DNA of 63,651 nucleotides from a virus. Taxonomy: Duplodnaviria > Caudoviricetes. Location of the stretch: IMG/VR virus record IMGVR_UViG_3300037467_001235, positions 1 to 63,651 of that record; one strand, 5' to 3'. How positions within the stretch are numbered: the first letter of the stretch is position 1; each line of letters begins with the position of its first letter. The notes below the pieces were generated by a model, which saw nothing but the letters and a program-made list of their open reading frames with translations, was not told the DNA's origin and did not search any database. Below, piece by piece: positions 3,625 to 62,692 of the stretch. Made by a program: the position numbers and the translations under genes.

Positions 3625-3645
3625 AAGCTAGTCATCGGGGGTGCA
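3625..3645 (-). promoter_or_regulatory. late-promoter motif TGCACCCC-N7-TAGCTT (portal)
   Basis: One of 10 copies with fixed 7-nt spacing; -10 is 8 nt from ATG 3616. Confidence 0.75.
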
Positions 3646-3663
3646 ACCGGCCTGGACGTGAGA

Positions 3664-3697
3664 ATGCCCCACTCCCAGGGGGTGAAGAGTGGGGCAT
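3664..3697. terminator. stem-loop/terminator
   Basis: ATGCCCCACTC...GAGTGGGGCAT, 11-bp inverted repeat downstream of 3725..4087. Confidence 0.6.
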
Positions 3698-3724
3698 CTA
3701 CCCGCACAGCGGGCGACCACGCCG

Positions 3725-4087
3725 CTACGGTAGCGGATTCTCGATGGAGGTCTCGGGGGTTTCGGCGAGCAACGCCCGATATCCGTGTGGACGCTCATAG
3801 GTTGTGTCGGTCGCGAGGTCGTGGATATCCACGAGGTCCCCGAGGTCGGGTGGAATACGTCCCCGCAGGTGGGTGATGTCGGGGATGACGACGAGTTCGA
3901 TCTTGTGGGTGAGGATGTGATCTATCAACGCCTCCGGCTGGTGCAGGGTTGAGGACCTGGTGAGACCGATGTAGTTGTAGCCCAGCCGGGCCGCGATCTG
4001 CACGCCCTGCCGGTTGAACCCGGTCAGGGTTTGCATCAGGTCCACGCACACGTATCCGATTGCGCGGGGCGGCGGCTCAACATCCAC
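3725..4087 (-). CDS. hypothetical protein, resolvase-catalytic-fold-like
   Basis: AIGYVCVD...AARLGYNY...VVIPDITHL pattern; no obvious catalytic Ser. Confidence 0.65.
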   Translation of the reverse strand: MDVEPPPRAIGYVCVDLMQTLTGFNRQGVQIAARLGYNYIGLTRSSTLHQPEALIDHILTHKIELVVIPDITHLRGRIPPDLGDLVDIHDLATDTTYERPHGYRALLAETPETSIENPLP

Positions 4088-4229
4088 GGTTATCTCCCTC
4101 AGCTTCGGCTTCGACCCGTTCCCGGATTCCTTCGACGCTTCGATCCTTCGGAATGCGCTGCGGCCACAACACCATCGCCGCGACGAATACGGCGGTGGCG
4201 ATGAAACACACGATCAGGAATGCGGTCAC
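4077..4229 (-). CDS. 50-aa small membrane/secreted protein
   Basis: AGGAGGAG RBS, GTG start; MTAFLIVCFIATAVFVAAMVLWPQRIPKDRSVEGIRERVEAEAEGDNRGC; overlaps the next start. Confidence 0.75.
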   Translation of the reverse strand: MTAFLIVCFIATAVFVAAMVLWPQRIPKDRSVEGIRERVEAEAEGDNRGC

Positions 4230-4372
4230 GGACTCCTCCTATGGTTCGCGCCCGCCGCCGAGGTCTGCGGCGCTCGGCGGCGGGGCGTGACTTGACATTG
4301 CCGCACCCCAAGCGCGTGAAGTACCAAACTTTTTCGCACTTTTCGCACCCCGGAAGGAGTTCAATAGGTGGG

Positions 4373-5590
4373 GTGAAAGGACACCGAGGCAGCACAGATG
4401 GAGTCGGGCCGCGCGTCGCGCAGATGCGGAAACTCGGTGGGCTAACCCAGAAACAGCTAGCCCTACGCGCCAACATCTCGGTCGGGCTGATCCGATCCGT
4501 CGAACAGGGCCGCGCCCCCGCCACCCCAGCGTTCCTCGGCGCCGTGTCGAAAGCGTTGCGGGTCAGCGTCCCCGACCTCACCGGCCAGCCCTACACCCCA
4601 GCACCAGGACAGGACAGCGAAGTGCACGCCGCTATCGCGGTCCTGCGCACAGAGATGGCCGCCTACGACCTCGACAACACCAGCATCACCGAACCGCGGC
4701 CCCTGCAACAGATCAGCGCCGGCGTGGCCCGTATCTGCCGGTACCGGCGCAATGCGTCGTTTCACCGGTTGGGGGAGGAGCTGCCGTCGCTGCTCGGCGA
4801 GGTCCGCGCCATCGTTCACCGCACCCGCGGCGATGTGCGGGACCGGGCGCTGGTGATGTTGTGCGAGCTGTACTACTCGGCGCACAGCCTCGCCCACAAA
4901 CTCGGGTACGCGGATCTCGCGGCTCTCGCGGTCGATCGACTGGCCTGGGCAGCACGAGAATCCGGTGACCAACTGTGGACAGCGACAGCACAGTTTCAGC
5001 GGGCAGCGTTGCTCACCTCCGGCGGCGATTGGACGGCAGCGCTCGACTTCCTCGAACGCTGCCGCAGCGACATCGAACCACGCCTCGCGGTCGGCCGCCG
5101 CGCCGACCTGATCTCTTGGGGTGGACTGCATCTGCAATCCGGGCTGGCAGCTTCACGCGCCGGAAACCGAAGCCTCGCAGACGCACACCTGGAGGAGGCT
5201 CGGGTCACCGCGGCGCGGGTGGGTGATGACCGGGATCAGGTGTTGTCGTTCGGGCCGACGAACGTCGATATCTGGTCGGTCGCGTTGGCGGTCGAGGCGA
5301 TGGACGGCACGGAGGCGTTGAACCGTGCCCGCACGATGGTGATTCCGGCGGACGCGCCGAAAGAACGCGCCGGCCACCACTTCATCGACCTGTCCCGCGC
5401 TTATCTCCTGCATGGGGATCGGCGGCACGCGTTCGGGTCGTTGCAGACGGCGAAAGCGATAGCGCCAGCACAAACCCGCTACAACCCGATGGTGCATGAG
5501 ACGGTGCGCGCGTTGGCGCGGGCCGAGGCTCGCAGTGTGGACACCGTGCACGGGTTCGCCGTGTGGTGCGGTATCGCCGACCGCCTCTAA
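4373..5590 (+). CDS. XRE-family HTH regulator with C-terminal TPR-like helical domain
   Basis: N-terminal GLTQKQLALRANISVGLIRSVEQG HTH plus ~330-aa helical region; start uncertain (GTG 4373). Confidence 0.85.
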   Translation: MKGHRGSTDGVGPRVAQMRKLGGLTQKQLALRANISVGLIRSVEQGRAPATPAFLGAVSKALRVSVPDLTGQPYTPAPGQDSEVHAAIAVLRTEMAAYDLDNTSITEPRPLQQISAGVARICRYRRNASFHRLGEELPSLLGEVRAIVHRTRGDVRDRALVMLCELYYSAHSLAHKLGYADLAALAVDRLAWAARESGDQLWTATAQFQRAALLTSGGDWTAALDFLERCRSDIEPRLAVGRRADLISWGGLHLQSGLAASRAGNRSLADAHLEEARVTAARVGDDRDQVLSFGPTNVDIWSVALAVEAMDGTEALNRARTMVIPADAPKERAGHHFIDLSRAYLLHGDRRHAFGSLQTAKAIAPAQTRYNPMVHETVRALARAEARSVDTVHGFAVWCGIADRL

Positions 5591-8082: not shown

Positions 8083-8103
8083 ACGGTATGTACTGGGGAT
8101 GCA
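8083..8103 (-). promoter_or_regulatory. late-promoter motif TGCATCCC-N7-TACCGT
   Basis: -10 is 8 nt upstream of ATG 8074. Confidence 0.7.
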
Positions 8104-11706: not shown

Positions 11707-11876
11707 CAGTCGTCCTTGTCGGTTCTGCGCGGCTGGACACGGCCTTCGTTGACGGCCTCGGCGAAGCCTTGAAACGCCCGCCGAACGCTCTCCGCCGCCG
11801 CATTCGTAGCTGCCTTCATCGCCATGATCTTCTCGCTCAGGGTTGGCTCGCGATTGAATTCGATCTGCTCGGCCAT
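11706..11876 (-). CDS. hypothetical protein (56 aa, not in ORF track)
   Basis: MAEQIEFNREPTLSEKIMAMKAA...TDKDD; TGATG-coupled at both ends. Confidence 0.75.
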   Translation of the reverse strand: MAEQIEFNREPTLSEKIMAMKAATNAAAESVRRAFQGFAEAVNEGRVQPRRTDKDD

Positions 11877-12250
11877 CAGTCGTCCTTGTCGTCTTCGGGG
11901 AACACGGGTTCGATCCGCGGGTCATGCCGCATCCCCTCCGCCACGATCCGCTGCCACCACCTGTTCGGAGGCAACTCGTCTTTCCGGGTACGCCACACCC
12001 GAACCCGAACCTTGTCCCCACCCTCGGGCACGGTCGCCATGAACTCGGCCACTTCACGATCGAACCGTTCGAACAGGGCCTCGATCTCCGCCCAAATACC
12101 TGTCGGGATCGGATCGCGCCCCGATTCCCACGACTGATAGGTGTTCGGGCGGACACCCAGCATTTCCGCCATATCCACCTGCTCCAACCCCAGGTATCGG
12201 CGGGATGCGGTGAGGCGGCCGGCGCGTCCGTGTTCGCGTGCGGTGGGCAT
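11876..12250 (-). CDS. XRE-like HTH DNA-binding protein
   Basis: RRYLGLEQVDMAEMLGVRPNTYQSWESGRDPIP; AAGGGAG RBS. Confidence 0.8.
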   Translation of the reverse strand: MPTAREHGRAGRLTASRRYLGLEQVDMAEMLGVRPNTYQSWESGRDPIPTGIWAEIEALFERFDREVAEFMATVPEGGDKVRVRVWRTRKDELPPNRWWQRIVAEGMRHDPRIEPVFPEDDKDD

Positions 12251-12348
12251 AGACTCCCTTTCGTCCAGCACGGCCGCTGCTCGACCGTGCTGGGCACCAT
12301 GATCACACGCTCTGCGGAGTGATCGTGGGGTGAGGGAGCGGCGTGGGG

Positions 12349-12705
12349 TCACGCGGCGATCCGGGTGGGCATGTCCACGCGGTCAGCGGTGTCCGCCAGG
12401 TGGGGGTGGACGAACCGCAGGTAGTTGCGGCACACCTTCACGGTGATGGTTTCGTATGCGTCGACCTGATCCGACAAGGCCAGCATGTTGATGTGGGAGC
12501 CCGCGATGTCGCCCGCGTAGGTGCGGTCGGTGCGGTCACCGTCGACGGTGACCCATTCGACCTCGACCGCGCCCGGCGCCCCGGTCTCTTCGCACATGGC
12601 GTTGTCCCAGCCGTCGCGGGTGACCTCGATACGCACACGGTCGTCGGCGTGGATACCGAGCGCTTCGGCGACCTGGGCGGCGGGGGTGGCGATGAAGGTG
12701 GTCAT
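12349..12705 (-). CDS. hypothetical protein
   Basis: MTTFIATPAA..., follows leader motif. Confidence 0.75.
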   Translation of the reverse strand: MTTFIATPAAQVAEALGIHADDRVRIEVTRDGWDNAMCEETGAPGAVEVEWVTVDGDRTDRTYAGDIAGSHINMLALSDQVDAYETITVKVCRNYLRFVHPHLADTADRVDMPTRIAA

Positions 12706-18878: not shown

Positions 18879-18899
18879 ACGGTATGACGGAGGGGTGCA
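18879..18899 (-). promoter_or_regulatory. late-promoter motif TGCACCCC-N7-TACCGT
   Basis: -10 is 7 nt upstream of ATG 18871. Confidence 0.75.
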
Positions 18900-26634: not shown

Positions 26635-27420
26635 TTACGCGGCTGTGCCGTCGTCCCATTCGCCCCCGCGCGCGCCCGTAGCCTGCCGATCGCGAACCAC
26701 TTGCCGTTTCGACACACCCACCCGGACCGCGATCTCCTCCGCCGAAAACCCCACACGAGTCAGGCCGGCGACCTTCTCCCGCCGCCACTCGGCGAGCTCG
26801 GCGGTGCCGGTGCGGGTTTCGACACCCGACACCTTCGCGGCCACGCGAGGATCGTCTATGTCGTGGCCGTGCCAATCGAGGGGCGGTGCCCAGCCTCGGC
26901 GGCGTGACTGTGCGCGAGCCTTGTTCGCCGATTGCCCGATTGGTCCTGGGGTGCCGGAAAGCTGTTCGTAGCTGTCGTGGATCGCTTTCCACAGCGGCCA
27001 GTCGATAGCCGGGCGTTTCGAATCAGGGTGGGCGTAGCGGGACAGGATTTGCTTGTCGACACCGCAGTGCTCGGAGATGGCGTGCCATGTCCAGCCGAGC
27101 GCGTGGAGGGCGCGCAGGCGGCGGGCGGCGCCGATAGCGATCACGACTTGCTGGCGTTCGTTCGGGTGGAAGTCGACGGCACGGATCGCAGCGGCTTGGC
27201 GGATGCGGATGTTGTCGAACGCGCCACTGTTCGCGGCCACCACGCACGTGTATCCGACTCCAGCGTCACGGGCGATGGACGCCAGCGGCAGGCCCATGCC
27301 GGTGAGGGTGGCGATGTGGTCGCGGACTGGGGCGTTGGGGATGTAGCCGGGGGCGTCACCGAACCGGGTGACGTGCTCGTAGGCGGCTTTCTTCCTGCCC
27401 TGCGGCTCGTATCTGGACAT
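26635..27420 (-). CDS. multi-HTH DNA-binding protein (candidate transcription activator)
   Basis: RRLRALHALGW...GWAPPLDW..DIDDP and C-terminal GFSAEEIAVRVGVSKRQVVRDR HTH. Confidence 0.75.
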   Translation of the reverse strand: MSRYEPQGRKKAAYEHVTRFGDAPGYIPNAPVRDHIATLTGMGLPLASIARDAGVGYTCVVAANSGAFDNIRIRQAAAIRAVDFHPNERQQVVIAIGAARRLRALHALGWTWHAISEHCGVDKQILSRYAHPDSKRPAIDWPLWKAIHDSYEQLSGTPGPIGQSANKARAQSRRRGWAPPLDWHGHDIDDPRVAAKVSGVETRTGTAELAEWRREKVAGLTRVGFSAEEIAVRVGVSKRQVVRDRQATGARGGEWDDGTAA

Positions 27421-27462: not shown

Positions 27463-27963
27463 TTATCCGATCGGGAACAGCGGGAGGGTTTCGGCGGTGA
27501 GGGTTGGCCGGCGCCGGGTGCGGGGTGGGTGGACGACGATCACCGAGGGGGGACAGGGCTGATCGGCGAGTCGCCGCATTTCGGCCAACTGTCCGATGAG
27601 TCGGTTTTCGGAGTCGCGGAGCCGGTCGCGGTCGGCCATGAGCTGGTTCATGGCATCAGGCGTGACGCGGGAGGCACGAACCTTGCTCTCCGCCTTCTCC
27701 ACTGCCGCCTCGGCGGCCAGTAGTTGGGTGGTGAGGACGGCTACGGGTTCGGTGCGGGCCATTTGGACGGTGCGGCGGGAGACGTGGAGCCAGGCGGCGA
27801 TGGTGTCGGTGGTGTGGCCGCGGTGGGTGAGGTGAGCGACCAGCCAGGCCCGGTCGCTGGCGGGGAGTTTCACGCCCTGGACACGCCCAGCTATCGCGGC
27901 GTCGATCAAGCATTCATCCGGGTTCCAGCGGGGCTGGTGCATGGTCAGGACGGTCACGGTCAC
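27463..27963 (-). CDS. HTH DNA-binding protein
   Basis: GHTTDTIAAWLHVSRRTVQ HTH plus coiled coil. Confidence 0.7.
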   Translation of the reverse strand: MTVTVLTMHQPRWNPDECLIDAAIAGRVQGVKLPASDRAWLVAHLTHRGHTTDTIAAWLHVSRRTVQMARTEPVAVLTTQLLAAEAAVEKAESKVRASRVTPDAMNQLMADRDRLRDSENRLIGQLAEMRRLADQPCPPSVIVVHPPRTRRRPTLTAETLPLFPIG

Positions 27964-34167: not shown

Positions 34168-34174
34168 GGCCCCT

Positions 34175-38129: not shown

Positions 38130-38150
38130 ACGGTAGGCGGTGGGGGTGCA
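38130..38150 (-). promoter_or_regulatory. late-promoter motif TGCACCCC-N7-TACCGT (endolysin)
   Basis: Fixed spacing, upstream of lysin RBS. Confidence 0.8.
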
Positions 38151-39479: not shown

Positions 39480-39500
39480 ACGGTAGGGGGCAGGGGTGCA
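39480..39500 (-). promoter_or_regulatory. late-promoter motif TGCACCCC-N7-TACCGT (TAC)
   Basis: Fixed spacing. Confidence 0.8.
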
Positions 39501-40439: not shown

Positions 40440-40442
40440 GAT

Positions 40443-44718: not shown

Positions 44719-44728
44719 GACAGCCTCC

Positions 44729-50134: not shown

Positions 50135-50140
50135 GCGCGG

Positions 50141-50161
50141 AGACTGGCAAACGGGGGTGCA
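50141..50161 (-). promoter_or_regulatory. late-promoter motif TGCACCCC-N7-CAGTCT (TMP)
   Basis: 6 nt upstream of GTG 50134. Confidence 0.7.
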
Positions 50162-50170
50162 AACCCAAGG

Positions 50171-52054: not shown

Positions 52055-52061
52055 AGCGGGG

Positions 52062-52082
52062 ACCGTAGGTGGGAGGGGTGCA
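52062..52082 (-). promoter_or_regulatory. late-promoter motif TGCACCCC-N7-TACGGT
   Basis: 7 nt upstream of ATG 52054. Confidence 0.8.
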
Positions 52083-52087
52083 GTCCC

Positions 52088-52489
52088 TTACTCGGCTGGC
52101 GGAGTGATGTTGCGGTTCAACGGATATGTCACGGCCGGAGTCACACCCTCAATCGCGTAGTCAGGGACGAGAGCCACCCGAGCGACCCACAAAAACACCT
52201 CGGAATTGATGTACGGATACGCACCCTCCACACCGGCAGCCCGCGGCCAATATGGTGCCAGGATCTGCCCCGGCCCCGGATTCACCGAGTGCTGGTCAGG
52301 CAATGTGTCGGTGCGGATCAAGCAGTAACCCTCGTCCGGTTCGAGGTCCGCCGCCCAATACGTGGCGATGAGTCCCCCGTCGATGTTGTGCGCCCAGACC
52401 AATTGGCCTCCAGCATCGATGACCGACCATTGATCGCTGGGGACCATGTCGACCCGATTCAGTTGCGATGGCATGTCGTCCTCTTTCAT
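52088..52489 (-). CDS. hypothetical protein
   Basis: 133 aa after the SGNH protein; start may be 52474. Confidence 0.65.
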   Translation of the reverse strand: MKEDDMPSQLNRVDMVPSDQWSVIDAGGQLVWAHNIDGGLIATYWAADLEPDEGYCLIRTDTLPDQHSVNPGPGQILAPYWPRAAGVEGAYPYINSEVFLWVARVALVPDYAIEGVTPAVTYPLNRNITPPAE

Positions 52490-52498
52490 TCGGAATTA

Positions 52499-53737
52499 CT
52501 ACGGCAGCATGGTTGCCAGCTCGGTCGCCATGCGTCGATGCCCCAGCCAGGATGGGTGGATGGTGTCGCAGGTGCCGTCAGCCCATATCGCGGTGGCGCT
52601 ACCGCCGCGCATCGCACCCGCGAAGTCGATAATGGCCGAGCAGAACGATGGCTTCAGTGCCAGCCACTCGTTGTAAGAGGCGCGCACACTGTCACCGGTG
52701 GATGTGCGGGGAATGATGGTGCCCATATAGACGGGCCCACTGAAGCTCGCCAGCGTTTGCACACGGCTGATCAACGTGAGTACAGCGGCCTGCATCGTCG
52801 CCAAGGTTCCACCGCCGCCGAACGCATCGTTGGACCCGCCGCTGATCAGCAGTTCATCGACCGGATATGTGCCGAGGTTCATTCGGTTCCAGACATGCGC
52901 GATGATCACGTTCGACGTGTCTGTCGCGTAGTCGCTGAGCTTCCATCCTGCCAGCGACAGGTTGACGATCAGCCGATTGTGTTCGGCCGCCCACAAATAC
53001 ACATTGCCCCGCCACAGTGGGGTAGGCGAAATGCTGGCGCTGGTTGTGCCGCGCGTGCCGCCGATCGGCTCGAAGATGCTGTCCCCGATGACGAAACACA
53101 CCTGCCGGCGAGTCGTGCACTCGTATTCGATGATCCAATCGAACGGCACAAAGGTCACGGTCCCGCCCGAGCCGGCGACAGTCGGGTCAGTGGCCGACGT
53201 CGAGTTGGTCCAGGTCCACGCCTTCCCGGCGCCGGTCTGTACCGCGGTCGATGATGCGAATGTCCACCCGAACGCCACCAGAAATTCCGTGTTTGCGGTG
53301 AACAGGGCAGGAGCTGACGTCACCCATGGCGACGTGTAATACGTTCCGTCGCCGGGGATCGTCTGGTCCGTGGACACGATCGTCGTCGCAGCGGAACCGG
53401 TGAAACTTCCGGTATCGGAGGCATCGCCGGTGGTAGCCACACTGTGTGTGCCGACCACCAGTTTTTTCAATGTCGCCGCAGTCTTTGCGGTTTCGCCTGA
53501 GTCGCGGTTGCGGATCTTGATGCGCCATCGCGACACGTCCACGGGCAGCTTCACTATGAACCGTGTGCTGCCTGCTGTGCCTGCTGACAGGCTCGTCGCC
53601 ACTGTTCCACCCAACCCGCCGTTGGTGTGCGGGAGGATCATGGTGCGCAGGGGAAGCGGCTTCAGCGTCAGTGTGTCGCTGTCCGGTAGTTCTTTGACGG
53701 CGCCCGCGTCGAGGACGAGGGGACGACGCTCCACCAT
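52499..53737 (-). CDS. SGNH/GDSL hydrolase-domain protein (probable virion appendage)
   Basis: Blocks GDS(I), G, GSND, DTIHP. Confidence 0.85.
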   Translation of the reverse strand: MVERRPLVLDAGAVKELPDSDTLTLKPLPLRTMILPHTNGGLGGTVATSLSAGTAGSTRFIVKLPVDVSRWRIKIRNRDSGETAKTAATLKKLVVGTHSVATTGDASDTGSFTGSAATTIVSTDQTIPGDGTYYTSPWVTSAPALFTANTEFLVAFGWTFASSTAVQTGAGKAWTWTNSTSATDPTVAGSGGTVTFVPFDWIIEYECTTRRQVCFVIGDSIFEPIGGTRGTTSASISPTPLWRGNVYLWAAEHNRLIVNLSLAGWKLSDYATDTSNVIIAHVWNRMNLGTYPVDELLISGGSNDAFGGGGTLATMQAAVLTLISRVQTLASFSGPVYMGTIIPRTSTGDSVRASYNEWLALKPSFCSAIIDFAGAMRGGSATAIWADGTCDTIHPSWLGHRRMATELATMLP

Positions 53738-54249
53738 CAGGCGAGCACCACCGCGGGGCCCGGCTCGAAGTTGATTGCGGTAGCCGACACGGCCACGCCG
53801 ATACGCTGCGACACATTCCCCGAACCGGACGGGGAGCTACCGGCCGCAGTGCCGGCGGTGGTGGCCAGGTACACCGGTCCGGGAGTGGCGCCGGTGACGC
53901 CGGTGTTGGTGCCCTCGAAGTAGACCGTGGCGCTCGCGCCCGACGACACCGCTGAGAGGACGAAGCCGTGCGCCTCCTTGCCCGCGGTGGTGGCGTCGGC
54001 TTTGCGGACCTTCGCGCCGGTGCTGTTCCACACGTTCACGAAATCCCCCGCGGCCAGGGCCTCCGACGCGGTGATGGTGGCGGTGTCCGCGCCGATACCG
54101 ACAGGCAGCATCGAGTTATCGAGGCGACCGGACGAATCCAGGGCAGGGATCTTCCCCGCATCCCCGGCGCCGGCCGAGGACTGCACAGCAGCCTGTTCGG
54201 TCAGCTGCCCGGTCGTGGTATCGAGCTTGATGTACTTGTTACCGGCCAT
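53737..54249 (-). CDS. virion structural protein (fibre/decoration-like)
   Basis: AGKIPALDSSGRLD...ASEALAAGDFVN...PVYL. Confidence 0.75.
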   Translation of the reverse strand: MAGNKYIKLDTTTGQLTEQAAVQSSAGAGDAGKIPALDSSGRLDNSMLPVGIGADTATITASEALAAGDFVNVWNSTGAKVRKADATTAGKEAHGFVLSAVSSGASATVYFEGTNTGVTGATPGPVYLATTAGTAAGSSPSGSGNVSQRIGVAVSATAINFEPGPAVVLA

Positions 54250-54261
54250 GATTGGAACTCC

Positions 54262-55041
54262 CTACAGTTGGATGCTCGGTGAGCGGTCGATGAATACGGT
54301 GGTCGCGCCAGTAGCCGCGGCCAGCTGCGCCAGGAACCCGCTCCCCGGCACGGTTTGGGTCAGCGCGCCCGCCGCGCCGAGGAAGATCGGGCCGGGTGTC
54401 CACGCCCAGGACGGCTCGGTCATCTCGCCGAGCATCTGCACCTGAATGTCCCCGCCGGATGCTGCCGCGCCCGTGGTTATCCCGATCGGCAATGTCAGGT
54501 GGGCGGGGTTGGTGTTGTCGGCGTAGATGAATCGGCCGTCCGTGCGGCGCACCACCGCCCGATGCCCCGACAACGCCGCCCCGGCCGTGCCGGTGACGAC
54601 GACGGCCGCGCCGCCCTCACCGTTTCCAGGCGGACCGGCCGGGCCTGGCACCGGGACGGCGACGGCCTGACTGTCCGGCAGGGGGACTGTGGTGGGGCAG
54701 CCGATACCTGTTGGCCCGCACCCGCTATCGACGCGCCCCTCGACCCAGATGAATGCTGGGTTGTCCGGGTAGTCCAGCCACAATTCGGCGTACGCGGACC
54801 GAGGCACAGCGGCCACCTGGTCGGCGGTCACATGCCACGACATCACCGCCCCCGAAATCGTCGCCGGCCATTGCACATCGAAGCTCGTGCCCCGCGCGGA
54901 CAGGTGCAGCCACGCCGATGTTCCGGACGGCCACGACATGGGTGTTCCGAGCGGCTGCTGTAGCTCGATCCGGCCGACGAAGTCCGCGGCGGGGTCGAGC
55001 GCGAGGCGCAGCCGACCAGCGACAGCGCCCAGGGTCAGCAT
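54262..55041 (-). CDS. virion structural protein
   Basis: LtfC-like N-terminus, VPGPAGPPG linker, ALSGHRAV decoration-like domain. Confidence 0.75.
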   Translation of the reverse strand: MLTLGAVAGRLRLALDPAADFVGRIELQQPLGTPMSWPSGTSAWLHLSARGTSFDVQWPATISGAVMSWHVTADQVAAVPRSAYAELWLDYPDNPAFIWVEGRVDSGCGPTGIGCPTTVPLPDSQAVAVPVPGPAGPPGNGEGGAAVVVTGTAGAALSGHRAVVRRTDGRFIYADNTNPAHLTLPIGITTGAAASGGDIQVQMLGEMTEPSWAWTPGPIFLGAAGALTQTVPGSGFLAQLAAATGATTVFIDRSPSIQL

Positions 55042-55048
55042 GGCCCGG

Positions 55049-55069
55049 AGGGTAGGTGGGAGGGGTGCA
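55049..55069 (-). promoter_or_regulatory. late-promoter motif TGCACCCC-N7-TACCCT
   Basis: 7 nt upstream of ATG 55041. Confidence 0.8.
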
Positions 55070-55073
55070 GATG

Positions 55074-55493
55074 TTATGCGGCGTCGATCTGAACGAACGT
55101 GCCCGACGCGGCCAGAGTGGCGCCGGTGGTGGAGGCCGCTACCCGCATATCCAGGGTGTCGTTTACGCCGACCACCACGCCCGCGATATCGAGATTGATT
55201 GTGCCCGTGCCAGCGAGGGAGGCGGATTTGATCTGTGCGCCGTTGAGGTAGATGTAGCCGGTGATCGTCGCAGAGAACGTGTTCGAACTGATCACCATCC
55301 GCGCCGTGACATTCACAGTGCCGGCCCGGTCCACCACCAGTGCGTTACTGACAATGTTGGTGGCCGGATATCCAGCATCAGCGGTCCAGGTCGGCACGAC
55401 CGTCGGTGTGGTGCCCGACAGAGATTGATTGCCGGACTTGTTCATCCGCTGCGACGACGGCGGCGACCCGCCACCCATGACGGCGAGCAACAT
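55074..55493 (-). CDS. minor tail protein
   Basis: QRMNKSG...WTADAGYPATNI beta-rich domain. Confidence 0.75.
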   Translation of the reverse strand: MLLAVMGGGSPPSSQRMNKSGNQSLSGTTPTVVPTWTADAGYPATNIVSNALVVDRAGTVNVTARMVISSNTFSATITGYIYLNGAQIKSASLAGTGTINLDIAGVVVGVNDTLDMRVAASTTGATLAASGTFVQIDAA

Positions 55494-56926
55494 CAGCGCG
55501 TCACCGCCGTAATCTCCACGATCAGGCCCAGGCCGGGCGTCGTGCCGACAGCGGTGATCCACGGCAGCAGGATGTCGCCGGCGTCGTAATCGAATGTGCC
55601 GGTGGCGGTGGCGTTCGCGCCGCCGGCGGTCTGATCGGCGACGGCGATGGATTTGTTCGTGCTGGCGACCTGGCTGCCGTTCTTCCGTAGCTCGACGTCG
55701 AGCGTCCCGGATACGCCTGCGGTAGCGCCGCGGTATCGGACCTGCGTGATTCGGATGTTGCGGGTGAGCTTGATGCCCTGGGAGGCGACGTTGCCGCCGC
55801 CGGTGGCGCGGGTGGTGGCGGAGTTGGTGTGGACGTACACGATGTCGTACACCTGCCCGGCCGCGGTCGGGGTGCGTGAGTCGGACAGTCGCGGGTCGGT
55901 GTCGGCGATGGTGGATATGACGCCCCGCGCGGCGGCGGCGTCGGTGGCCTTCATCAGGTTCCGGCCGACCGTGGTGGAGTCGCTGATATCGGTGGCTGGA
56001 TGGGTGTGGCCCACATTGGATTTGCCCGCGAGTCCCGGCACGGTGGGGGATGCCGCCGTGCCGCCGAGGTCACCGGCGAGTTGGAGGATGCCCTTCACGC
56101 TCGAGGTGGCATCCGGCGCAGGCGGGCCCGCTGGTCCGGTAGCGCCCTGTGGCAGGGTGAGGTTCAGCAGCCAGTGAGGGGAGGGGCCGGTGACGCTGGC
56201 GGCGGCGGAGCTGCCGGGCGCGCCGGTGGTGACGGTGCCGATACCGAGCGTGAACGACGCAGCAGCCGTTTCCGCCGCGGTAGCCGAATCGGCTGCGTCG
56301 CTGGCGCTGTCGGCCGCCGCATCCGCCGCGGCTTGCGCGTCCGTGATCGCTGGAATGGGAACACCGGGCAGGGTGGAGCCGTCCGACAGGGAGAACACCA
56401 GCGCGTCCCCGACGAGCGCCACACCGACCACGGACACACCCGCTGTGACGGCGTTCCCGAGGCTGCCGGGCACCGGTGACACCTTGGTGAGGTCGGTGAT
56501 CCCGGTCGATCCGGTGTCGGGGTCGGCAGGGTTTGGGCCGGGCGTGTACTCGGTGACGTAGAACGAGAACGACGGCAGTTTGACCGGTTTCGTCCCGTAG
56601 TACAGGTTGAACGACACCCGGTACGTGAAGGTGCTGGGATTGGTGGTGCCCGGTGTGGGCGCGATGACCCGCACCCCGCGCTCGCCCTGATTCGAGAGGT
56701 AGCCCTGATCATCGAGGGTGCACACGTAATAGTCGGGCAGCTGAACCACAGTCGTCGGGTCCGGGTCGCCCTGCGGTACGAGGATTTTCGGGGGCTCGGC
56801 CTTGATCGTGACCTCACCCGACAGCGGCTCGAATTCCGGGAGGTCGTCGGAGTCGACGCCATCGGCGACGTTGGCCAGGAATCGGCCGACGATCTTGCCG
56901 AACTTCAAACCGAGAGGGTCGGTCAC
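55493..56926 (-). CDS. minor tail/fibre protein
   Basis: DATSSVKGILQLAGDLGG, HTHPATDISD, DPRLSDSRTP fibre motifs. Confidence 0.85.
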   Translation of the reverse strand: MTDPLGLKFGKIVGRFLANVADGVDSDDLPEFEPLSGEVTIKAEPPKILVPQGDPDPTTVVQLPDYYVCTLDDQGYLSNQGERGVRVIAPTPGTTNPSTFTYRVSFNLYYGTKPVKLPSFSFYVTEYTPGPNPADPDTGSTGITDLTKVSPVPGSLGNAVTAGVSVVGVALVGDALVFSLSDGSTLPGVPIPAITDAQAAADAAADSASDAADSATAAETAAASFTLGIGTVTTGAPGSSAAASVTGPSPHWLLNLTLPQGATGPAGPPAPDATSSVKGILQLAGDLGGTAASPTVPGLAGKSNVGHTHPATDISDSTTVGRNLMKATDAAAARGVISTIADTDPRLSDSRTPTAAGQVYDIVYVHTNSATTRATGGGNVASQGIKLTRNIRITQVRYRGATAGVSGTLDVELRKNGSQVASTNKSIAVADQTAGGANATATGTFDYDAGDILLPWITAVGTTPGLGLIVEITAVTR

Positions 56927-56951
56927 GAATTACTCCCTCGAACAGGACGGA

Positions 56952-56981
56952 GTGGTGGACCGGGACTGCCCGGTCCACCAC
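56952..56981. terminator. stem-loop after major tail gene
   Basis: GTGGTGGACCGGG-ACTG-CCCGGTCCACCAC, 13-bp stem. Confidence 0.7.
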
Positions 56982-56987
56982 CACCGA

Positions 56988-58091
56988 TCATGCGTAGACG
57001 CCGCCCTTGACGGTCTCGGCCACAGTGACGGACGGCGACGTGCCGCCGGTCAGACCCGCACCCGAACCGGTCATCAACGGCAGATCCAGACCCGCCAGCT
57101 CGCCCTTGAACTCGCACACGTACGGCCCCGAACCGGTCACATCGATGTTCCCGGTGCCGATGGTCGACAGAGCCTCCAGCGCCGCCTTCACCGCGGTATT
57201 CGCGGCGTTGTATGCGATACCGGAGGTGGTCTGCGACTTGTAGGTGAGCGTGAAAGTCCCACCAGTCGGCGAACCGGTGATGGTCACGGTCTGCTTCTCG
57301 TTCGAAGCGACAGTGCCGCAAGCGGGCTGCTCCGGCGCCGTCTCCGCAGCCAACTCCCCGTAGTAGGGGGTCGGCAGGATCAGCGGGCACGCACCATCGG
57401 TGGGTTCCGGCGGGGCGATCGTGGTCTTGAACGACCGGTAGTGCTGGCCCGCCTTGATCGCGGTCAGCAGACGGCCCGGCGTGTTGTCCACGTCGGTGGC
57501 CATCACGTTGTACGGGCCGCGACCCCAGCGGGTGCCAGCGGCGGTGATGCCGGTGAGCGTGAAAGTCGATGCTTTCGCGCCGATCTCGGTGTCACCGACC
57601 TGCGCCTCTTTCAGGACGGGCCACAGCATGTACCCGTACGGCAGGTTCTGCACACCGCCCGCGCCGACGAGAATGTCATCGGAATCCGGGACATCGCAGG
57701 CGTCGTCGGAGCCGACACCCGACCACAATTCGATGGCGACACCAGTGGTGTCGGGGACTTCCTTCTGATCGGAGAAACCGATCGCCTTACCGTCCCAGGA
57801 GGTGACGACCTCCCAGTCCAACAGCATGTTGAAGAAGTCGGTGTCCACGCCACACAGTTCGATGGCGAGACTCCACCATTTGCGTTCGGGCGGGGTGCGA
57901 TCAGCTACGCACACACGCCCTTCGGCGTTGGTTTGTTCGATGTCGTCGGCGTCGCGCATCACGGGGGATGCCTTGACGGTGACGAATCCGGAGGTGACCA
58001 GCCGCGACCGCGGTCCGGCCAGGGGCATGCCACAAGCGTCGACCAGGGTCGCCCGCAGGCGCTTTCCCTTCACGACCGCGAAAGTTGCCAC
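56988..58091 (-). CDS. major tail protein with C-terminal extension
   Basis: RATLVDACG...NAEGRVCV...WGRGPYNV; strong RBS and late promoter. Confidence 0.9.
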   Translation of the reverse strand: MATFAVVKGKRLRATLVDACGMPLAGPRSRLVTSGFVTVKASPVMRDADDIEQTNAEGRVCVADRTPPERKWWSLAIELCGVDTDFFNMLLDWEVVTSWDGKAIGFSDQKEVPDTTGVAIELWSGVGSDDACDVPDSDDILVGAGGVQNLPYGYMLWPVLKEAQVGDTEIGAKASTFTLTGITAAGTRWGRGPYNVMATDVDNTPGRLLTAIKAGQHYRSFKTTIAPPEPTDGACPLILPTPYYGELAAETAPEQPACGTVASNEKQTVTITGSPTGGTFTLTYKSQTTSGIAYNAANTAVKAALEALSTIGTGNIDVTGSGPYVCEFKGELAGLDLPLMTGSGAGLTGGTSPSVTVAETVKGGVYA

Positions 58092-58152
58092 GGTGACTCC
58101 TCAAATCCCATGTCAGAGTTGTTTTCGTGGCTGCCCATGCCCCGTGCGCCGC

Positions 58153-58173
58153 ACCATAGAGAGGCGGGGTGCA
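58153..58173 (-). promoter_or_regulatory. late-promoter motif TGCACCCC-N7-TATGGT (major tail)
   Basis: Fixed spacing. Confidence 0.8.
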
Positions 58174-58178
58174 GACGA

Positions 58179-58523
58179 TCAGTCGAGACGGTGACCGTTG
58201 CGCAGGATCTGCCGGAGGTCGTCTGCGTCCGCGCCGTGAGAGTCGAGACGACCGATCGCCGACCACAGTGCGGTGGTCAGTTCGCCAACCCGGTCGCGGA
58301 GGGTGTCGACGCTCTTCTGGAGGGTGTCGACCTTCGTCTCCAGTTGCTGGTTCTCCTTGCGCACGTCCTCGGCGACGTCGTGGGACATCTTCGCCGCGAT
58401 CTGCGCCAGCTCGGCGTCCTGCAATTTGCGGGGCGGCCGGCGGGATGCCCACATGCCGCCGAGGGTGGCGATACCGGCCGATAGCACCCCGGAACCCACG
58501 AGGGCTGTTACGACATCACTCAC
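58179..58523 (-). CDS. membrane protein with coiled coil (lysis-associated)
   Basis: N-terminal TM plus heptads. Confidence 0.75.
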   Translation of the reverse strand: MSDVVTALVGSGVLSAGIATLGGMWASRRPPRKLQDAELAQIAAKMSHDVAEDVRKENQQLETKVDTLQKSVDTLRDRVGELTTALWSAIGRLDSHGADADDLRQILRNGHRLD

Positions 58524-58956
58524 GGGACACCTCTTTCACCGCCCGCTGGAACTGGCGCAATCTGCGCAAATCCCGAGCGAGAATCAACACCGCGCACGCC
58601 GTCAACGCCGCCGCAGACCACGCCGAAAACGTGGCCCGTTCAGCCCATGTCGCCTGCAACACGGCCACCACATACGCGGCGGTCGCGCACGCCGCCCCCG
58701 CATCCCCTGCCACGAGCAGCCACAACCCACCCGGCCGCTTCCGCAGCAGATACCCCAACCCCGACAGGATCGGGCAGGCGATCAGCAGCCCGGTCCACAT
58801 CAGCGACACCCACGGCCCCATCGCCTGCGCCACCACAGTCGGTGGCGACCCCAACGCCAACGACTGGATACCGGCGATGGCATAGGAGATGAAGATGATC
58901 CCCTGGTAGAGCCGTACTGATTCGCTGTCCACCCAGCGGGTGGCGCGTCGCCTCAT
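58516..58956 (-). CDS. 4-TM membrane protein (lysis-associated)
   Basis: Four hydrophobic segments. Confidence 0.75.
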   Translation of the reverse strand: MRRRATRWVDSESVRLYQGIIFISYAIAGIQSLALGSPPTVVAQAMGPWVSLMWTGLLIACPILSGLGYLLRKRPGGLWLLVAGDAGAACATAAYVVAVLQATWAERATFSAWSAAALTACAVLILARDLRRLRQFQRAVKEVSRE

Positions 58957-59378
58957 CCCTTGAGCTCACTCCCCGGCGGGGACACCAGCCGATGCACGTA
59001 CGCGGTCACCACGGCCAGCACTGCACCGATCGCCGCGCCGCCCACGGCTTTCCAGTCCGACAGGTTGGTGAAGTCGAACCCGTTACCACCGATCACCCCC
59101 GCCACGGCCAGTAGGACGCCCACGACCACGGTGGAGATCGCGCCTTGAATGGCGGTGCGGCGGGCCCGATCCCGTGCGTCCGCTTTGGCCGGCACGTCAC
59201 CGGCAGGCAGAACGACCTGTCCGCCGTCGCCGAGCCAATCCCGGATCTGCCGTTCGGCCGCTTCACGCGCCTGCTCGGCCGCGGCGGTTGCAGCGGCGGT
59301 GATGCGGGGCTCCACCTGTGACTCGATCTGCGTCAGGACCTGTCGGGCGACGAGATCGACCACGTTGGTGCCGGTCAT
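58953..59378 (-). CDS. holin-like protein
   Basis: RARRTAIQG plus two TM segments. Confidence 0.65.
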   Translation of the reverse strand: MTGTNVVDLVARQVLTQIESQVEPRITAAATAAAEQAREAAERQIRDWLGDGGQVVLPAGDVPAKADARDRARRTAIQGAISTVVVGVLLAVAGVIGGNGFDFTNLSDWKAVGGAAIGAVLAVVTAYVHRLVSPPGSELKG

Positions 59379-59680
59379 GACTTGCCCTCAGCGGGCTTGT
59401 TGTCAGCGGCCTTGTCGTCGGCCTTCGGCTTCGCGCGGCTCGCGGTCTTGCGGGCGGGCTTCTCCGCCTTCTCATCCGAATCGTCATCGAGGAACCCCGC
59501 CGCGCGGGCGATATCGACCGGTACCCGGAACTCGCCGGCCGAACGCCCTGTGACGGTGCGGACTTCGCGGCGCCGATCCCCGGCCGCGTCGAGCAGTTTC
59601 GACGCCAGCGCGCTGCGGTCGGATTCGTTGAGGGGGCGGATGTCGGCGAAATCGCCGTCTACCTGGGTGATTACGTTCAT
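59375..59680 (-). CDS. hypothetical virion-region protein
   Basis: LASKLLDAAG...VRT...FRVP. Confidence 0.7.
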   Translation of the reverse strand: MNVITQVDGDFADIRPLNESDRSALASKLLDAAGDRRREVRTVTGRSAGEFRVPVDIARAAGFLDDDSDEKAEKPARKTASRAKPKADDKAADNKPAEGKS

Positions 59681-59682
59681 GA

Positions 59683-60423
59683 TCAGACTCCGATCGTGAC
59701 TGCGGTCGCCCAGCATTCCCAGGTGACCAGTACTTCTCGCTCCGCAACAGTGAGGCGGTCGTTGTGGGGATAATCAGCGCCATCGGTGAGCACGACCGGC
59801 CCTCGATGGACAGTGACGGGGCCGGTGGACACGATGGTGTCGTTCAGGCCCGAATAGCCTGCGCCGAACGCCCACCGGTGCCCGAGCGGCGAAAGCAGCT
59901 GCCCGCCTTGCCGAATCACCAGTTGGGCGGCAGACAACGGTGCAGCCAGGTGCGGGGCAGCATGGAACACGCCCGTGAATCCGCTACCGGCGACCGCTTC
60001 CTCCAAAGCGCCCACAGCCGCAACCACACCGGTCACGGTGTCGGGTGTTCCGGCCGCGGCCAGCAGTTTCGGGGTGAGCTGTTCCTCGGCGCGCACCTGC
60101 TCCTGTAGACGCAGGAGCTGTTGCGCGCGTTCGTGCGCCTCCGCCAGCGGCACAGACGCGCCGCAGTCGTCGTCGGCGCCGACCACATCACCCTCGAATG
60201 GGTCGGGGCGTTCGGCCCGGTCGCTGCCTTTTGGCGACGGATCGGGGATCGGTTCGGAGCAGTTGATCGGCCACACCCACGACGTGCCGCAGTTGCGGGA
60301 ATCGACCAACACGCCGAGACCTAGACGTGACGGCTCCCCGCTGTCGATGAGCGTCGCCGCCGTGTACAAGCCGGTGCCGGCGGGATTCGCCGGTGGCGGC
60401 GTGTAAATCTCGCCATAGTCCAT
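59683..60423 (-). CDS. second capsid protein (pentamer-like)
   Basis: Follows major capsid; VGALEE...GVFHA...LSPLGHRWAFGAGY...AEREV. Confidence 0.7.
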   Translation of the reverse strand: MDYGEIYTPPPANPAGTGLYTAATLIDSGEPSRLGLGVLVDSRNCGTSWVWPINCSEPIPDPSPKGSDRAERPDPFEGDVVGADDDCGASVPLAEAHERAQQLLRLQEQVRAEEQLTPKLLAAAGTPDTVTGVVAAVGALEEAVAGSGFTGVFHAAPHLAAPLSAAQLVIRQGGQLLSPLGHRWAFGAGYSGLNDTIVSTGPVTVHRGPVVLTDGADYPHNDRLTVAEREVLVTWECWATAVTIGV

Positions 60424-60457
60424 CAGGGAAACCACCTCTCAAAGGGGAAGGTCCGGC

Positions 60458-60508
60458 CGGGGGGCGGGGAGCGGGGGCAGCCACACAGGGACTGCTCCCC
60501 GCCCCCCG
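60458..60508. terminator. 15-bp stem-loop between the two capsid genes
   Basis: CGGGGGGCGGGGAGC...GCTCCCCGCCCCCCG. Confidence 0.7.
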
Positions 60509-60533
60509 AACCGGAGTCAGGGAAGAACGCCCG

Positions 60534-62600
60534 TTAGTTCGGGGCGCCCTTCGTGGTTTCCGCGACCGCGATCGACGGGCTGGTGCCGCCGGTGAACGAA
60601 CCGCTCACGGTGATCGCCGTGGTATCGGTGGCCGCCAGGTCGCCCTGGAACTTCACCGCGTACGGGCCGCCCGCGTTGCCGGTGACTGCGACATTGCCGG
60701 TGCCGATGGTGGACAGGCCCGCCAAAGCGGACTGCACCGTCGCGGCGGAGGCGTTGTACGGCAGAGCCGACGTGGTCTGACCCTTGTAGGTCGCGGTCCA
60801 GGTGCCGCCGGTCGGGGAACCGGTGATGGTGATGGTCTGGACCTCGGCGGTGTCGGTGGTGACCGCGATCTCGACCCGTCCACCCACGGAACCGTTCACA
60901 GCGACCGGCACGGTGACGACCTCGGAGACACGGCACCGGTTGTCCACCAGGTACTCGTCCTCGGTGAAGACCTCCATGTACCGGTTCTGCTGCAGGAGCG
61001 CCTTGTCGTACAGGGTGCCGACCTCGATCACGTTGGCGAGGTGACGGAACCACGCACCCGACGGGTACAGCAGCACCTGCGCGCTGCTCGGCCAGTGGGT
61101 GGCAGCATCGGGCAGGCCCTGCCAGTGACCGACCCACTGGATGCGGATGTTGCGGTTGGCCAGCCAACCGTCCACGGTCGCGTCGGTGACCGCCTTGACG
61201 TCCAGGCCCTGCTGCAGAGCCATATCCGCCGCAGCCGCCTTCAACAACCAACTCGGGGCCACACCCTCGATGGGCGCGGTGTGGGAGATGCGTTCCTTCT
61301 GCCGAATCACAGTCGCCCGCAACGCCAATCCATTGAGGATCGCGCCCGCACCACCCAGCACCGAACCGGTACCAGAGACCGCGGCAATACCCGACATCGC
61401 GGGAATGGTGATCGCCGACGAACCGGCCACCATGTCACCGATGGTCCACATGGACAGCTGGATCGCGTGAGCCTTCATCACCTCGGCCATGAACCGGGCA
61501 ATGACCTCCGGGTAACCCCTCCGCTGGAGGATGCCGGCGGTGACGCACAGGCCGATGGCTTCGGCGCGGATCTCCTCGAAAGTCGTGCACGGGATCTCGA
61601 TGCACGGCTTCGTCGGGTTCTCCATCAGCTCCGCTTCCGTGTACCGGAACGGCAGAGTCTCGTACAGCTCGGAGAAGTCGGGTTCGACCGGGCGCCGGAT
61701 ACCGCCACGGGTGATGTTCATGTCCGGCAGCGTGATCAGATCGGTCGCCGGGTTGACCTCGCAGAACTCGTAGCTGGTGTCCGAGGGCGAGCACCAACCA
61801 GCGGACGCGGTGAGAGCGCCGTCGTCGGCGAACTCGTTGGCCTTGTACGGGGTGGCCTTGATGATCTCGTTCACCTCGGCCGCGGCGTCGGTGTCCTTCT
61901 CGGACACGACGATCCGGTCCTGCCCGAACTCGCGGGACAGGGTGCCCAGGCTCATGGCGATCTTCTCGGCGCTGGAACGGTGCGGGTTGCGGTTCGACCG
62001 GATGACACTGGACGGGGCCATGCTGTCGATCGATGCGGCCAACTGCTCGTAACCAACCAGACCGGCCGCATACTTCGGCACATTCGCCGTCATGCGGAAA
62101 CCGATTTCCTGCTTCGGCGCGACGCGAGCCGGAGATTTTCCGGTACGCGCACCCAGGCCCTTGAAGCTCGCGACCTTCGGCTTGGTCGCCGCGGTCACCG
62201 CTTCCTGCGCGGCCTCCTGAGTCACCGCTTCCGCCTCGGCCACCACATCGGTGCCGCCGTCGCCGGGTTCGTCGGTCTCCTCGGTTTCGGTGTCGGTGTC
62301 CTCGTCGCCCTCCGGGTCCTCGTCGGGCTCCGCGCGCTTGGCGTTTCGGGCCTCGATCAGCTGACGGGCTTCTTCGGTGCGCTGCCGCTCCTCGGCCTGC
62401 ACCTCGCCGATCCGCGCCACCAGGGCATTGCCGGCGTCATTGAGCGCCTTCATATCGGCCACCACTTGGGCCGAAGGCGCAGGGCCGTCCTCGGTGACTT
62501 CCTTCTCCAGCTCCGCGAATTCGGCTTCGGCTGCGGTGGCCAGTTCGGTCAGCTGCTCGATCGAGAGCCCGTCCAGGCTCTCCGGCATCTGGAACTTCAT
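60534..62600 (-). CDS. major capsid (hexamer) protein with N-terminal scaffold-like region and C-terminal extension
   Basis: Acidic helical N-terminus, LTASAGWCSPS, K.C.EIPC, LYDKALL..N.Y...FTED. Confidence 0.9.
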   Translation of the reverse strand: MKFQMPESLDGLSIEQLTELATAAEAEFAELEKEVTEDGPAPSAQVVADMKALNDAGNALVARIGEVQAEERQRTEEARQLIEARNAKRAEPDEDPEGDEDTDTETEETDEPGDGGTDVVAEAEAVTQEAAQEAVTAATKPKVASFKGLGARTGKSPARVAPKQEIGFRMTANVPKYAAGLVGYEQLAASIDSMAPSSVIRSNRNPHRSSAEKIAMSLGTLSREFGQDRIVVSEKDTDAAAEVNEIIKATPYKANEFADDGALTASAGWCSPSDTSYEFCEVNPATDLITLPDMNITRGGIRRPVEPDFSELYETLPFRYTEAELMENPTKPCIEIPCTTFEEIRAEAIGLCVTAGILQRRGYPEVIARFMAEVMKAHAIQLSMWTIGDMVAGSSAITIPAMSGIAAVSGTGSVLGGAGAILNGLALRATVIRQKERISHTAPIEGVAPSWLLKAAAADMALQQGLDVKAVTDATVDGWLANRNIRIQWVGHWQGLPDAATHWPSSAQVLLYPSGAWFRHLANVIEVGTLYDKALLQQNRYMEVFTEDEYLVDNRCRVSEVVTVPVAVNGSVGGRVEIAVTTDTAEVQTITITGSPTGGTWTATYKGQTTSALPYNASAATVQSALAGLSTIGTGNVAVTGNAGGPYAVKFQGDLAATDTTAITVSGSFTGGTSPSIAVAETTKGAPN

Positions 62601-62671
62601 GTTCGTGTCCTCCCACGACAAATACGGTCTTTCGGTCCGGGAGGCCCACAGCCATGCCCCATTGGCCGCGC

Positions 62672-62692
62672 ACGGTAGGGAAGGGGGGTGCA
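62672..62692 (-). promoter_or_regulatory. late-promoter motif TGCACCCC-N7-TACCGT (capsid)
   Basis: Fixed spacing; a second TGCACCCC lies just upstream. Confidence 0.8.

Follow-up and report, generated by a model that had tools for sequence, protein, structure and literature searches.

The window analysed here is the entire record of a tailed virus (IMG/VR record IMGVR_UViG_3300037467_001235; Caudoviricetes), 63,651 bp long with a G+C content of ∼66%, in which the minus strand holds nearly all genes. Ten sites on the coding strand, each shortly upstream of a virion or lysis gene, share an 8-bp box of consensus TGCACCCC followed by a hexamer of the form (T/C)ANNNT. The sites are interpreted as late promoters of the phage, in which a −10 element of the type recognized by the principal (sigma-A-type) sigma factor of the host is combined with a box that would be read by a phage protein and would take the place of a −35 element. 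The probability of this reading is put at about 0.68. The motif was described in an earlier note drawn from the letters of this DNA, and most of the features listed there are borne out by the analysis.

The exact motif TGCACCCC-N7-YANNNT occurs nine times, compared with a mean of 0.06 in shuffled sequences, and none of 100 shuffles reaches nine. The tenth site (8103-8083) carries a box with one mismatch, TGCATCCC. These are the ten minus-strand copies that had been reported, and the distance between box and −10 element, said to be always 7 nt, is 7 nt in 10 of 10 sites. The box alone is present ten times in the window, exclusively on the minus strand, against a shuffle mean of 3.89, with 1 of 100 shuffles reaching ten. 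Allowing up to one mismatch, the minus strand has 37 boxes and the plus strand has 30, and (T/C)ANNNT at +7 is found only in the ten sites; an apparent eleventh match results from the overlap of the tandem boxes at 62705 and 62692.

The hexamers carry A2 and T6 in all ten sites and T1 in nine, consistent with the TANNNT pattern of the principal sigma factor, for which A2 and T6 are the most critical bases of −10 recognition. The box occupies the positions 15 to 8 nt upstream of the −10 element, or approximately −28 to −20 if transcription starts 6–8 nt past it. A profile of 38 sites from six related genomes, many of them orthologous and hence non-independent and with the box columns fixed by the search pattern, confirms that no −35 element is conserved: positions −40 to −2 relative to the box all have ≤0.34 bit, with the exception of a pyrimidine directly preceding the box. 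In the same profile the spacer is pyrimidine-rich, the −10 element is mostly TAC(C/G)GT, and the next six bases are nearly all G or C. A scan of 49000-63651 for the classical −35/−10 consensus returned one site against 1.4 expected, and it is not one of the ten.

The start codon lies 6–8 nt past the −10 element at six sites (3645, 8103, 18899, 50161, 52082, and 55069, named as elsewhere by their highest coordinate), as had been observed, and a Shine-Dalgarno sequence (GGAG or GAGG) is present between the two at none of the six. Such a layout suggests leaderless mRNAs. At 50161, 52082, and 55069 the whole promoter fills the 32–36-nt gap from the upstream stop codon to the start codon. The other four sites (38150, 39500, 58173, and 62692) precede leaders of 26–71 nt, all with a GGAGG-like Shine-Dalgarno sequence. 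The leaderless layout is repeated at orthologous sites of the relatives described below. Coordinates are collected in the table, together with those of the proteins considered as readers of the box.

Table. Predicted late promoters, associated elements, and candidate box-reading proteins of the window. The gap is the number of nucleotides between the −10 element and the start codon; aa, amino acids; HTH, helix-turn-helix.
Feature	Coordinates	Strand	−10 element	Gap and start codon	Further description
Major capsid promoter	62672..62692	-	TACCGT	71 nt, ATG 62600	Box TGCACCCC; GGGAGG Shine-Dalgarno; phrog_777
Orphan tandem box	62698..62705	-			Box TGCACCCC, 13 nt upstream of the capsid promoter box, without a −10 of its own
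Major tail promoter	58153..58173	-	TATGGT	61 nt, GTG 58091	GAGGAG Shine-Dalgarno; phrog_792
LtfC-like fibre-type gene promoter	55049..55069	-	TACCCT	7 nt, ATG 55041	Leaderless layout; PF23926
Head-tail adaptor promoter	52062..52082	-	TACGGT	7 nt, ATG 52054	Leaderless layout; phrog_783
Tape measure promoter	50141..50161	-	CAGTCT (weak)	6 nt, GTG 50134	Leaderless layout
Tail-assembly-chaperone-like (TAC) gene promoter	39480..39500	-	TACCGT	31 nt, ATG 39448	GGAGG Shine-Dalgarno; PF23781
Endolysin promoter	38130..38150	-	TACCGT	26 nt, ATG 38103	GAGGAGG Shine-Dalgarno; endolysin PHROGs
First late promoter past the early region	18879..18899	-	TACCGT	7 nt, ATG 18871	Leaderless layout
DUF1360-like membrane protein promoter	8083..8103	-	TACCGT	8 nt, ATG 8074	Box TGCATCCC; phrog_781, PF07098
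Portal promoter	3625..3645	-	TAGCTT	8 nt, ATG 3616	Leaderless layout; phrog_776
Terminator-like hairpin	63192..63222	-			12-bp stem and T run, upstream of the capsid promoter
Candidate A	27463..27963	-			166 aa; N-terminal HTH (HTH_23/GerE-like), long helical region, conserved C-terminal TLPLF
Candidate B	26635..27420	-			261 aa; three HTH-like modules; weaker candidate
Candidate C	11876..12352	-			XRE/Aca2-like HTH, inside the late gene run

Gene functions were assigned by protein family scans (80 proteins against PHROGs, 79 against Pfam, and 10 against NCBIfam). The list of downstream genes given in the earlier note stands in all entries except one: the gene after the 18899 site, placed there in a terS operon, encodes a 118-aa protein from ATG 18871 that has no family match in the PHROGs, Pfam, and NCBIfam scans. 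This gene heads a same-strand run that extends to terL (9876-8296). Its first codons (ATGGGCAGCAACACC) are conserved in two Nocardia genomes, G004 and G007, and the rest of the protein is without a match there. Since all downstream genes are virion or lysis genes, the ten sites are taken to form a late regulon.

The earlier view that the virion genes are split into many transcription units is overstated. A search of the late stretch 49000-63651 found just one terminator-like hairpin on the coding strand, at 63222-63192; most promoters in this stretch therefore look internal and additive. They probably add transcripts inside long read-through units and do not define closed operons, and their main role may be to adjust how much of each protein is made. 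Full boxes and strong ribosome-binding sites are found at the capsid and tail genes, and the tape measure gene has a weak −10 element. The weak element is kept in relatives as CACCTT, CACCGT, and GATTGT, with just A2 and T6 retained. In one search of RNA-library runs, four runs contained approximately one-quarter of the sampled words of 50000-59999; compared with 44000-63651, these runs are assembled contigs, uninformative on strand and transcript starts and possibly affected by DNA carry-over, and they speak neither for nor against the promoters. These contigs, from root-associated RNA libraries, include pieces of 18.8 and 14.4 kb of a phage that differs from the window at ∼5–10% of aligned positions.

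Several additional elements lie near individual promoters. The tandem orphan box (62698-62705) is not present at the orthologous sites of G004, G005, and G007. The capsid leader (62601-62671) holds a conserved element, GGGGYATGGCTGYGGGCCTCCCG, whose CCUCCC could pair with the GGGAGG Shine-Dalgarno sequence; the element occurs twice in the capsid leaders of G004 and G007. The predicted folds of the leaders are no better than those of shuffled sequences (capsid z −1.37, tail z −0.66, TAC z +1.10). The word GGGCAGC is found on the minus strand 16, 16, and 9 nt past the −10 element at the tail (58136), TAC (39463), and 18899 (18869) promoters, respectively, and is retained at the orthologous sites of relatives; it is common in the genome and is not enriched there (14 minus-strand and 19 plus-strand copies).

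The search for the motif in related phages, proposed in the earlier note, places the box and −10 element before orthologous genes. Across six relatives (G001, G002, and G004-G007) the pair precedes the orthologs of the capsid, major tail, adaptor, tape measure, portal, TAC, and lysis genes. The adaptor proteins of these genomes are 69–98% identical to that of the window, and both the spacers and the upstream flanks of the sites diverge. The sister phage G001 (adaptor 98% identical) has eight of the sites, and the spacers of some are altered; the provirus fragment G002 (adaptor 70%) has six co-oriented sites. In the Nocardia prophages G004-G007 the pair stands before the capsid, major tail, tape measure, and portal orthologs and, varying by genome, also at the adaptor, TAC, lysis, and LtfC-like genes. 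Among the boxes of these prophages are the degenerate forms TGCACCCT, CGCACCCC, TGCGCCCC, and TGCGCGGT; at the sites orthologous to that of the DUF1360-like gene the box is TGCGCGGT in G004 and TGCGCGGG in G007. The more distant G003 (adaptor 49%) carries six co-oriented sites, of which two are exact and four have one mismatch. The mosaic breakpoints of G001 (L074, L077) relative to the window fall exactly at the promoters 38130-38150 and 52082: in G001 another lysin gene follows the 38150 promoter in a leaderless arrangement, and a different gene stands upstream of the adaptor promoter.

A shorter core, TGCAC-N10-TANNNT, extends beyond these relatives. It occurs exactly twice in the forward and never in the reverse orientation in each of five Bclasvirinae (Marley1013, Rosebush, Thonko, Fang, and Heath), with 0–1 matches to the reversed control. 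Of the two core sites of Marley1013, one precedes the major capsid gene and one the major tail gene; in the other four genomes one core site precedes the major tail gene. Across these Bclasvirinae and NTR1, the capsid-side site has the core either unchanged or with a single base altered. Nocardia phage NTR1 carries TGCACGCC-N7-TACTGT before the tail gene and TGCATAGT-N7-TACTGT before the capsid gene, Gordonia phage Sour carries TGCACCCT-N7-TACGGT at 11385, and a Mycobacterium prophage (L098) has four co-oriented TGCAC-N10-(T/C)ANNNT sites, but none with the exact TGCACCCC form. Leonard, RoadKill, Gina, and Ranunculus have a tail protein of the same family and no such motif in the 130 nt upstream of its gene. 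Four genes of Marley1013 (portal, tape measure, gene 41, and lysin A) start 6 nt past a TANNNT with a weak box (GACACCCT, AGCGCCCC, GGCACGTT, and CGCACCGG), which hints, as weak evidence, that the distributed and partly leaderless layout is old in the lineage. The motif is not unique to this genome: this type of promoter occurs in every related phage sampled, and the ten-copy state therefore represents an expansion and sharpening of an inherited promoter type. A different repeat, TTGCAC-N18-TAAGGT, lies upstream of Orf14 and Orf28 of NTR1 (L122) and, inverted, before Orf41; its spacer contains the dyad GCACGGAACCCGTGC, and it is probably an early promoter with an operator.

The exact motif, with TANNNT as the hexamer, is confined to the prophage contig in two Nocardia genomes. 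All seven matches in G004 and all five in G007 (genomes of 7.8 and 7.9 Mb) are on the prophage contig, and the reversed control gives none. The motif is missing from 87 of 151 Nocardia genomes, and the majority of the remaining ones contain one or two matches, with controls of 0–2 per genome. Co-oriented clusters on one contig are found in G004 (7), G007 (5), G027 (6), G037 (6), and G143 (3); G006 and G094 have nine matches each, dispersed over small contigs. Two families of single host matches recur. One is antisense within an open frame of ∼1000 codons, and the other lies in a non-coding stretch of the Nocardia chromosomes of several species (L153-L155), with repeated TGTGGA-type words that we take to be an origin-like cluster of DnaA boxes. 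Neither family looks like a regulon. The box thus appears to be phage-specific, which points to a phage-encoded reader.

The proposal that a phage protein reads the box is strengthened by this distribution, and of the two proteins nominated in the earlier note, candidate A is further supported by co-occurrence, and candidate B is the weaker. The gene for candidate A follows the replication initiator gene in the early operon. The protein is 99% identical in G001 and 64% identical in G004, and relatives are present in G001, G003-G008, NTR1, the five Bclasvirinae, and Sour, that is, in every core-carrying genome examined; named examples are Marley1013 gp78, Sour gp70, and NTR1 Orf22. A tblastn search detected matches in 395 phage records, 368 of them from Mycobacterium phages. 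No homolog was found in the four phages of the same tail family that are without the motif (Leonard, RoadKill, Gina, and Ranunculus). An Atlas look-up of candidate A returned only generic homeodomain-like HTH neighbors, and the structure model has a mean predicted local distance difference test score (pLDDT) of 72.5. A predicted complex of residues 10–135 with domain 4 of the Nocardia principal sigma factor scored 0.00 and 0.00 in predictions run without controls, which count neither for nor against such a contact. The TLPLF tail (27463-27500), which resembles the short hydrophobic tails that bind sliding clamps, is replaced by a cysteine- and histidine-rich segment in the relatives from cluster B and Sour.

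Candidate B is 56% identical in G001, despite the identical boxes there, and was not found in G003, G008, NTR1, or Marley1013. The best classical promoter-like site of the early and middle region (26564-26592, minus strand; TTGACG, 17 nt, TATATT, 10 of 12 matches) lies just downstream of its gene. Candidate C is as widespread as candidate A, with matches in 497 phage records, and belongs to a family common in cluster-B-type phages; it was not found in NTR1 (best E 0.17). Candidate A is the most likely box reader, at odds that we judge to be somewhat short of even. More doubtful is the specific proposal that it acts as a viral sigma adaptor on the TGCAC(CCC) box near −25, replacing the missing −35 contact of the host principal sigma factor in the way that PafBC serves the DNA-damage regulon of the host. 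If candidate A is such an adaptor, its relatives would be the late-gene activators of the cluster-B mycobacteriophages and of their Nocardia and Gordonia kin.

The proposed mechanism relies on the RNA polymerase of the host. The holoenzyme with the principal sigma factor would recognize the TANNNT element, and the box, with its TGCAC core at approximately −28 to −20, would stand in for the −35 element. A DNA-binding protein from the early operon would read the box and help the host holoenzyme at otherwise poor promoters, such that the virion and lysis genes remain silent until this protein appears. [quoted passage not shown] The sequences themselves show the motif with its fixed spacing, positions, conservation, and restriction to phage DNA; that the sites act as promoters, that they act late, that they depend on an activator, and which protein this is are what we infer.

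Other roles of the box are conceivable. An operator bound by a repressor, comparable to the stoperators of cluster A phages, would leave the −10-only promoters intrinsically active and switch them off in lysogens; the asymmetric box always points the same way relative to transcription, is present in multiple copies genome-wide, and overlaps the region of the RNA polymerase footprint, and genes for HTH proteins of the repressor type lie at 33689-34744 and 4220-5590. We regard this role as unlikely. The core and its spacing are kept in NTR1 and the five Bclasvirinae, and the feature tables of NTR1 and Marley1013 list neither an integrase nor an immunity repressor. In the window itself, the divergent switch region 33040-33688 has no box at up to one mismatch, the 4220-5590 protein has no homolog in G004, G005, and G007, whose boxes are identical, and the rigid 7-nt distance is more typical of polymerase contact than of occlusion. 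Just as unlikely is a host protein, conserved in Nocardia, Mycobacterium, and Gordonia, whose TGCAC recognition was borrowed by the phages. The identical core and spacing in phages of three host genera would follow from such a factor, but the host has no visible regulon, the exact TGCACCCC-type sites cluster in prophages only, and an ever-present factor would keep the tape measure, portal, and lysin genes of a prophage switched on.

Slightly less probable again is an alternative sigma factor of host or phage origin that reads the entire 21-bp element. The bipartite motif with its fixed spacing is reminiscent of sigma-dependent promoters, and the CGT of TACCGT resembles the −10 elements of extracytoplasmic function (ECF) sigma factors. 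Known sigma factors, however, have spacers of 16–18 nt, far longer than the 7-nt gap; A2 and T6 are invariant even in TAGCTT, TATGGT, and CAGTCT, a hallmark of the principal sigma factor; the host chromosome makes no use of the element; and none of the window proteins scanned matches a sigma factor family above threshold in the PHROGs, Pfam, and NCBIfam scans. The least probable reading, and a very improbable one, treats the sites as recombination junctions or as signals for RNA processing or translation at module boundaries. The window and G001 do have two mosaic breakpoints that coincide with promoters (38150 and 52082), but breakpoints at regulatory junctions are expected anyway, a TANNNT 6–8 nt before starts that have no Shine-Dalgarno sequence is the standard leaderless layout of actinobacteria, and an Rfam search of the whole window gave no RNA family match. 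Late promoters with a sigma-A-type −10 element and a phage-read box remain the favored interpretation.

A number of observations weigh against this interpretation or reduce the strength of the comparisons behind it. The term late is based solely on the functions of the downstream genes. Promoters with only a −10 element can be active in actinobacteria, and the box could modulate them or act negatively. Many of the compared sites are orthologous, and the conservation counts overstate their independence. The five Bclasvirinae are a sample from several hundred genomes, and in four of them the second core site, ∼5 kb upstream of the tail site, is at the place expected for the capsid gene by position alone. 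In Sour the exact TGCACCCC before the major tail gene has no clear TANNNT after it. Candidates A and C both track the lineage, and their co-occurrence with the motif compares clades and not independent events. A Foldseek search of the candidate A model against PDB gave no match at E ≤ 0.001.

The phage of the window is a temperate siphophage with a complete genome of 63.6 kb. Family scans identify a serine integrase gene (36716-35361), plus-strand HTH repressor-type genes, early-region genes for an antirepressor, Erf, HNH, and replication-initiator proteins, and virion and lysis genes for terL, portal, MuF-like, major capsid, major tail, adaptor, tape measure, minor tail, and endolysin proteins. 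The capsid protein is ∼39–40% identical to those of NTR1, Skermania phage SPI1, and the cluster-B mycobacteriophages. A megablast search of GenBank for near-identical phages returned just one weak partial match. The closest relatives are prophages of Nocardia genomes (adaptor identity 69–75%), which makes a Nocardia species or a near relative the most likely host. The MuF-like gene extends past the left end of the window, and in relatives the portal, MuF-like, and capsid genes are consecutive on one strand; the record is therefore a permuted linear representation. terL and portal are kept apart by several kb of other genes, and NTR1 and Marley1013 share this scattered order. The order is compatible with the idea in the earlier note that distributed late promoters permit it, without proving it; if the idea is correct, the ten-copy and partly leaderless arrangement would let the lineage scatter its structural genes.

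Some genes of the window stand apart from their surroundings or occur as paralogs. A gene for a 456-aa HTH_3 protein lies amid the late genes in the opposite orientation (4220-5590, plus) and is absent from G004, G005, and G007; an ABM-domain gene (5895-5593) adjoins it. Two HIT-domain paralogs are present, one in the late run (18027-18518) and one in the early region (21830-22189). Three DUF7172 paralogs are arranged in tandem after the minor tail genes (39825-41632), and a GDSL lipase-like gene (53737-52499) sits among the tail genes.

The late promoters of actinobacteriophages are largely uncharacterized; in the passages of a 2022 review that concern them, few mycobacteriophage late promoters are said to be characterized and further work is described as warranted (PMC9262239). 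The analysis provides an explicit promoter model with fixed spacing for ten genes of this phage and for the major tail and capsid side of five cluster-B mycobacteriophages, together with a short and testable list of candidate activators. Strong and tightly controlled late promoters would also be useful as expression tools.

Several known systems share features with the ten sites. The stoperators of cluster A phages are likewise short, asymmetric, multi-copy sites oriented with transcription. Stoperators, however, are 13 bp long, serve as binding sites of the immunity repressor, and have no set distance to a −10 element; moreover, the phage core is still found in relatives without an integrase or immunity repressor in their feature tables. 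The middle promoters of phage T4 are similar in that a phage-specific, multi-copy box read by a phage protein replaces the −35 element before a host-type −10 element. They differ in that the MotA box is further upstream (∼−30) and serves middle genes, not late genes. PHROG and Pfam scans of the predicted proteins gave no match to the MotA or AsiA families. These T4 promoters, known for sigma appropriation by MotA and AsiA, are mentioned in a passage of PMC8635444. Cluster O mycobacteriophages have predicted SigA-like promoters with leaderless mRNAs, but, in the portion of PMC4351075 that deals with them, these promoters have a recognizable −35 element and 17-bp spacers, they do not form a late-gene regulon, and no shared upstream box is described. 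No description of the present motif was found in the open-access literature, including passages of PMC3029335 and PMC11772480, which is no proof that it is unpublished.

The closest parallel is provided by the PafBC promoters of mycobacteria. According to the relevant passages of Muller et al. 2021 (PMC8635444), these have the form tGTCgg(N10)tA(N3)T, in which a canonical −10 element is preceded by a ‘−26 element’ (−23 to −28) and not by a −35 element, and the PafBC activator inserts between the DNA and sigma domain 4 in a process termed ‘sigma adaptation’. On this description, both are hybrid promoters of Corynebacteriales in which a sigma-A −10 element lacks a −35 partner and is preceded at a fixed distance by a short asymmetric element. 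The two differ in sequence and by one position, as tGTCgg begins 16 nt before the −10 element and the phage box TGCACCCC begins 15 nt before it. They also differ in distribution: TGTCGG-N10-TANNNT occurs 56 and 68 times in the host Nocardia genomes (controls 8 and 26) and not at all in the window, the host chromosome lacks the phage box, and no WYL-domain protein is present among the phage proteins scanned against PHROGs and Pfam. If the box works like the −26 element of PafBC promoters, phages would have independently reached −35-free ‘adapted’ promoters, and this would support the suggestion, made in the part of PMC8635444 that bears on it, that such control is widespread in actinobacteria. 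The −35-less hybrid promoter with an activator element is already known as a kind, and its version as a phage late regulon appears to be new.

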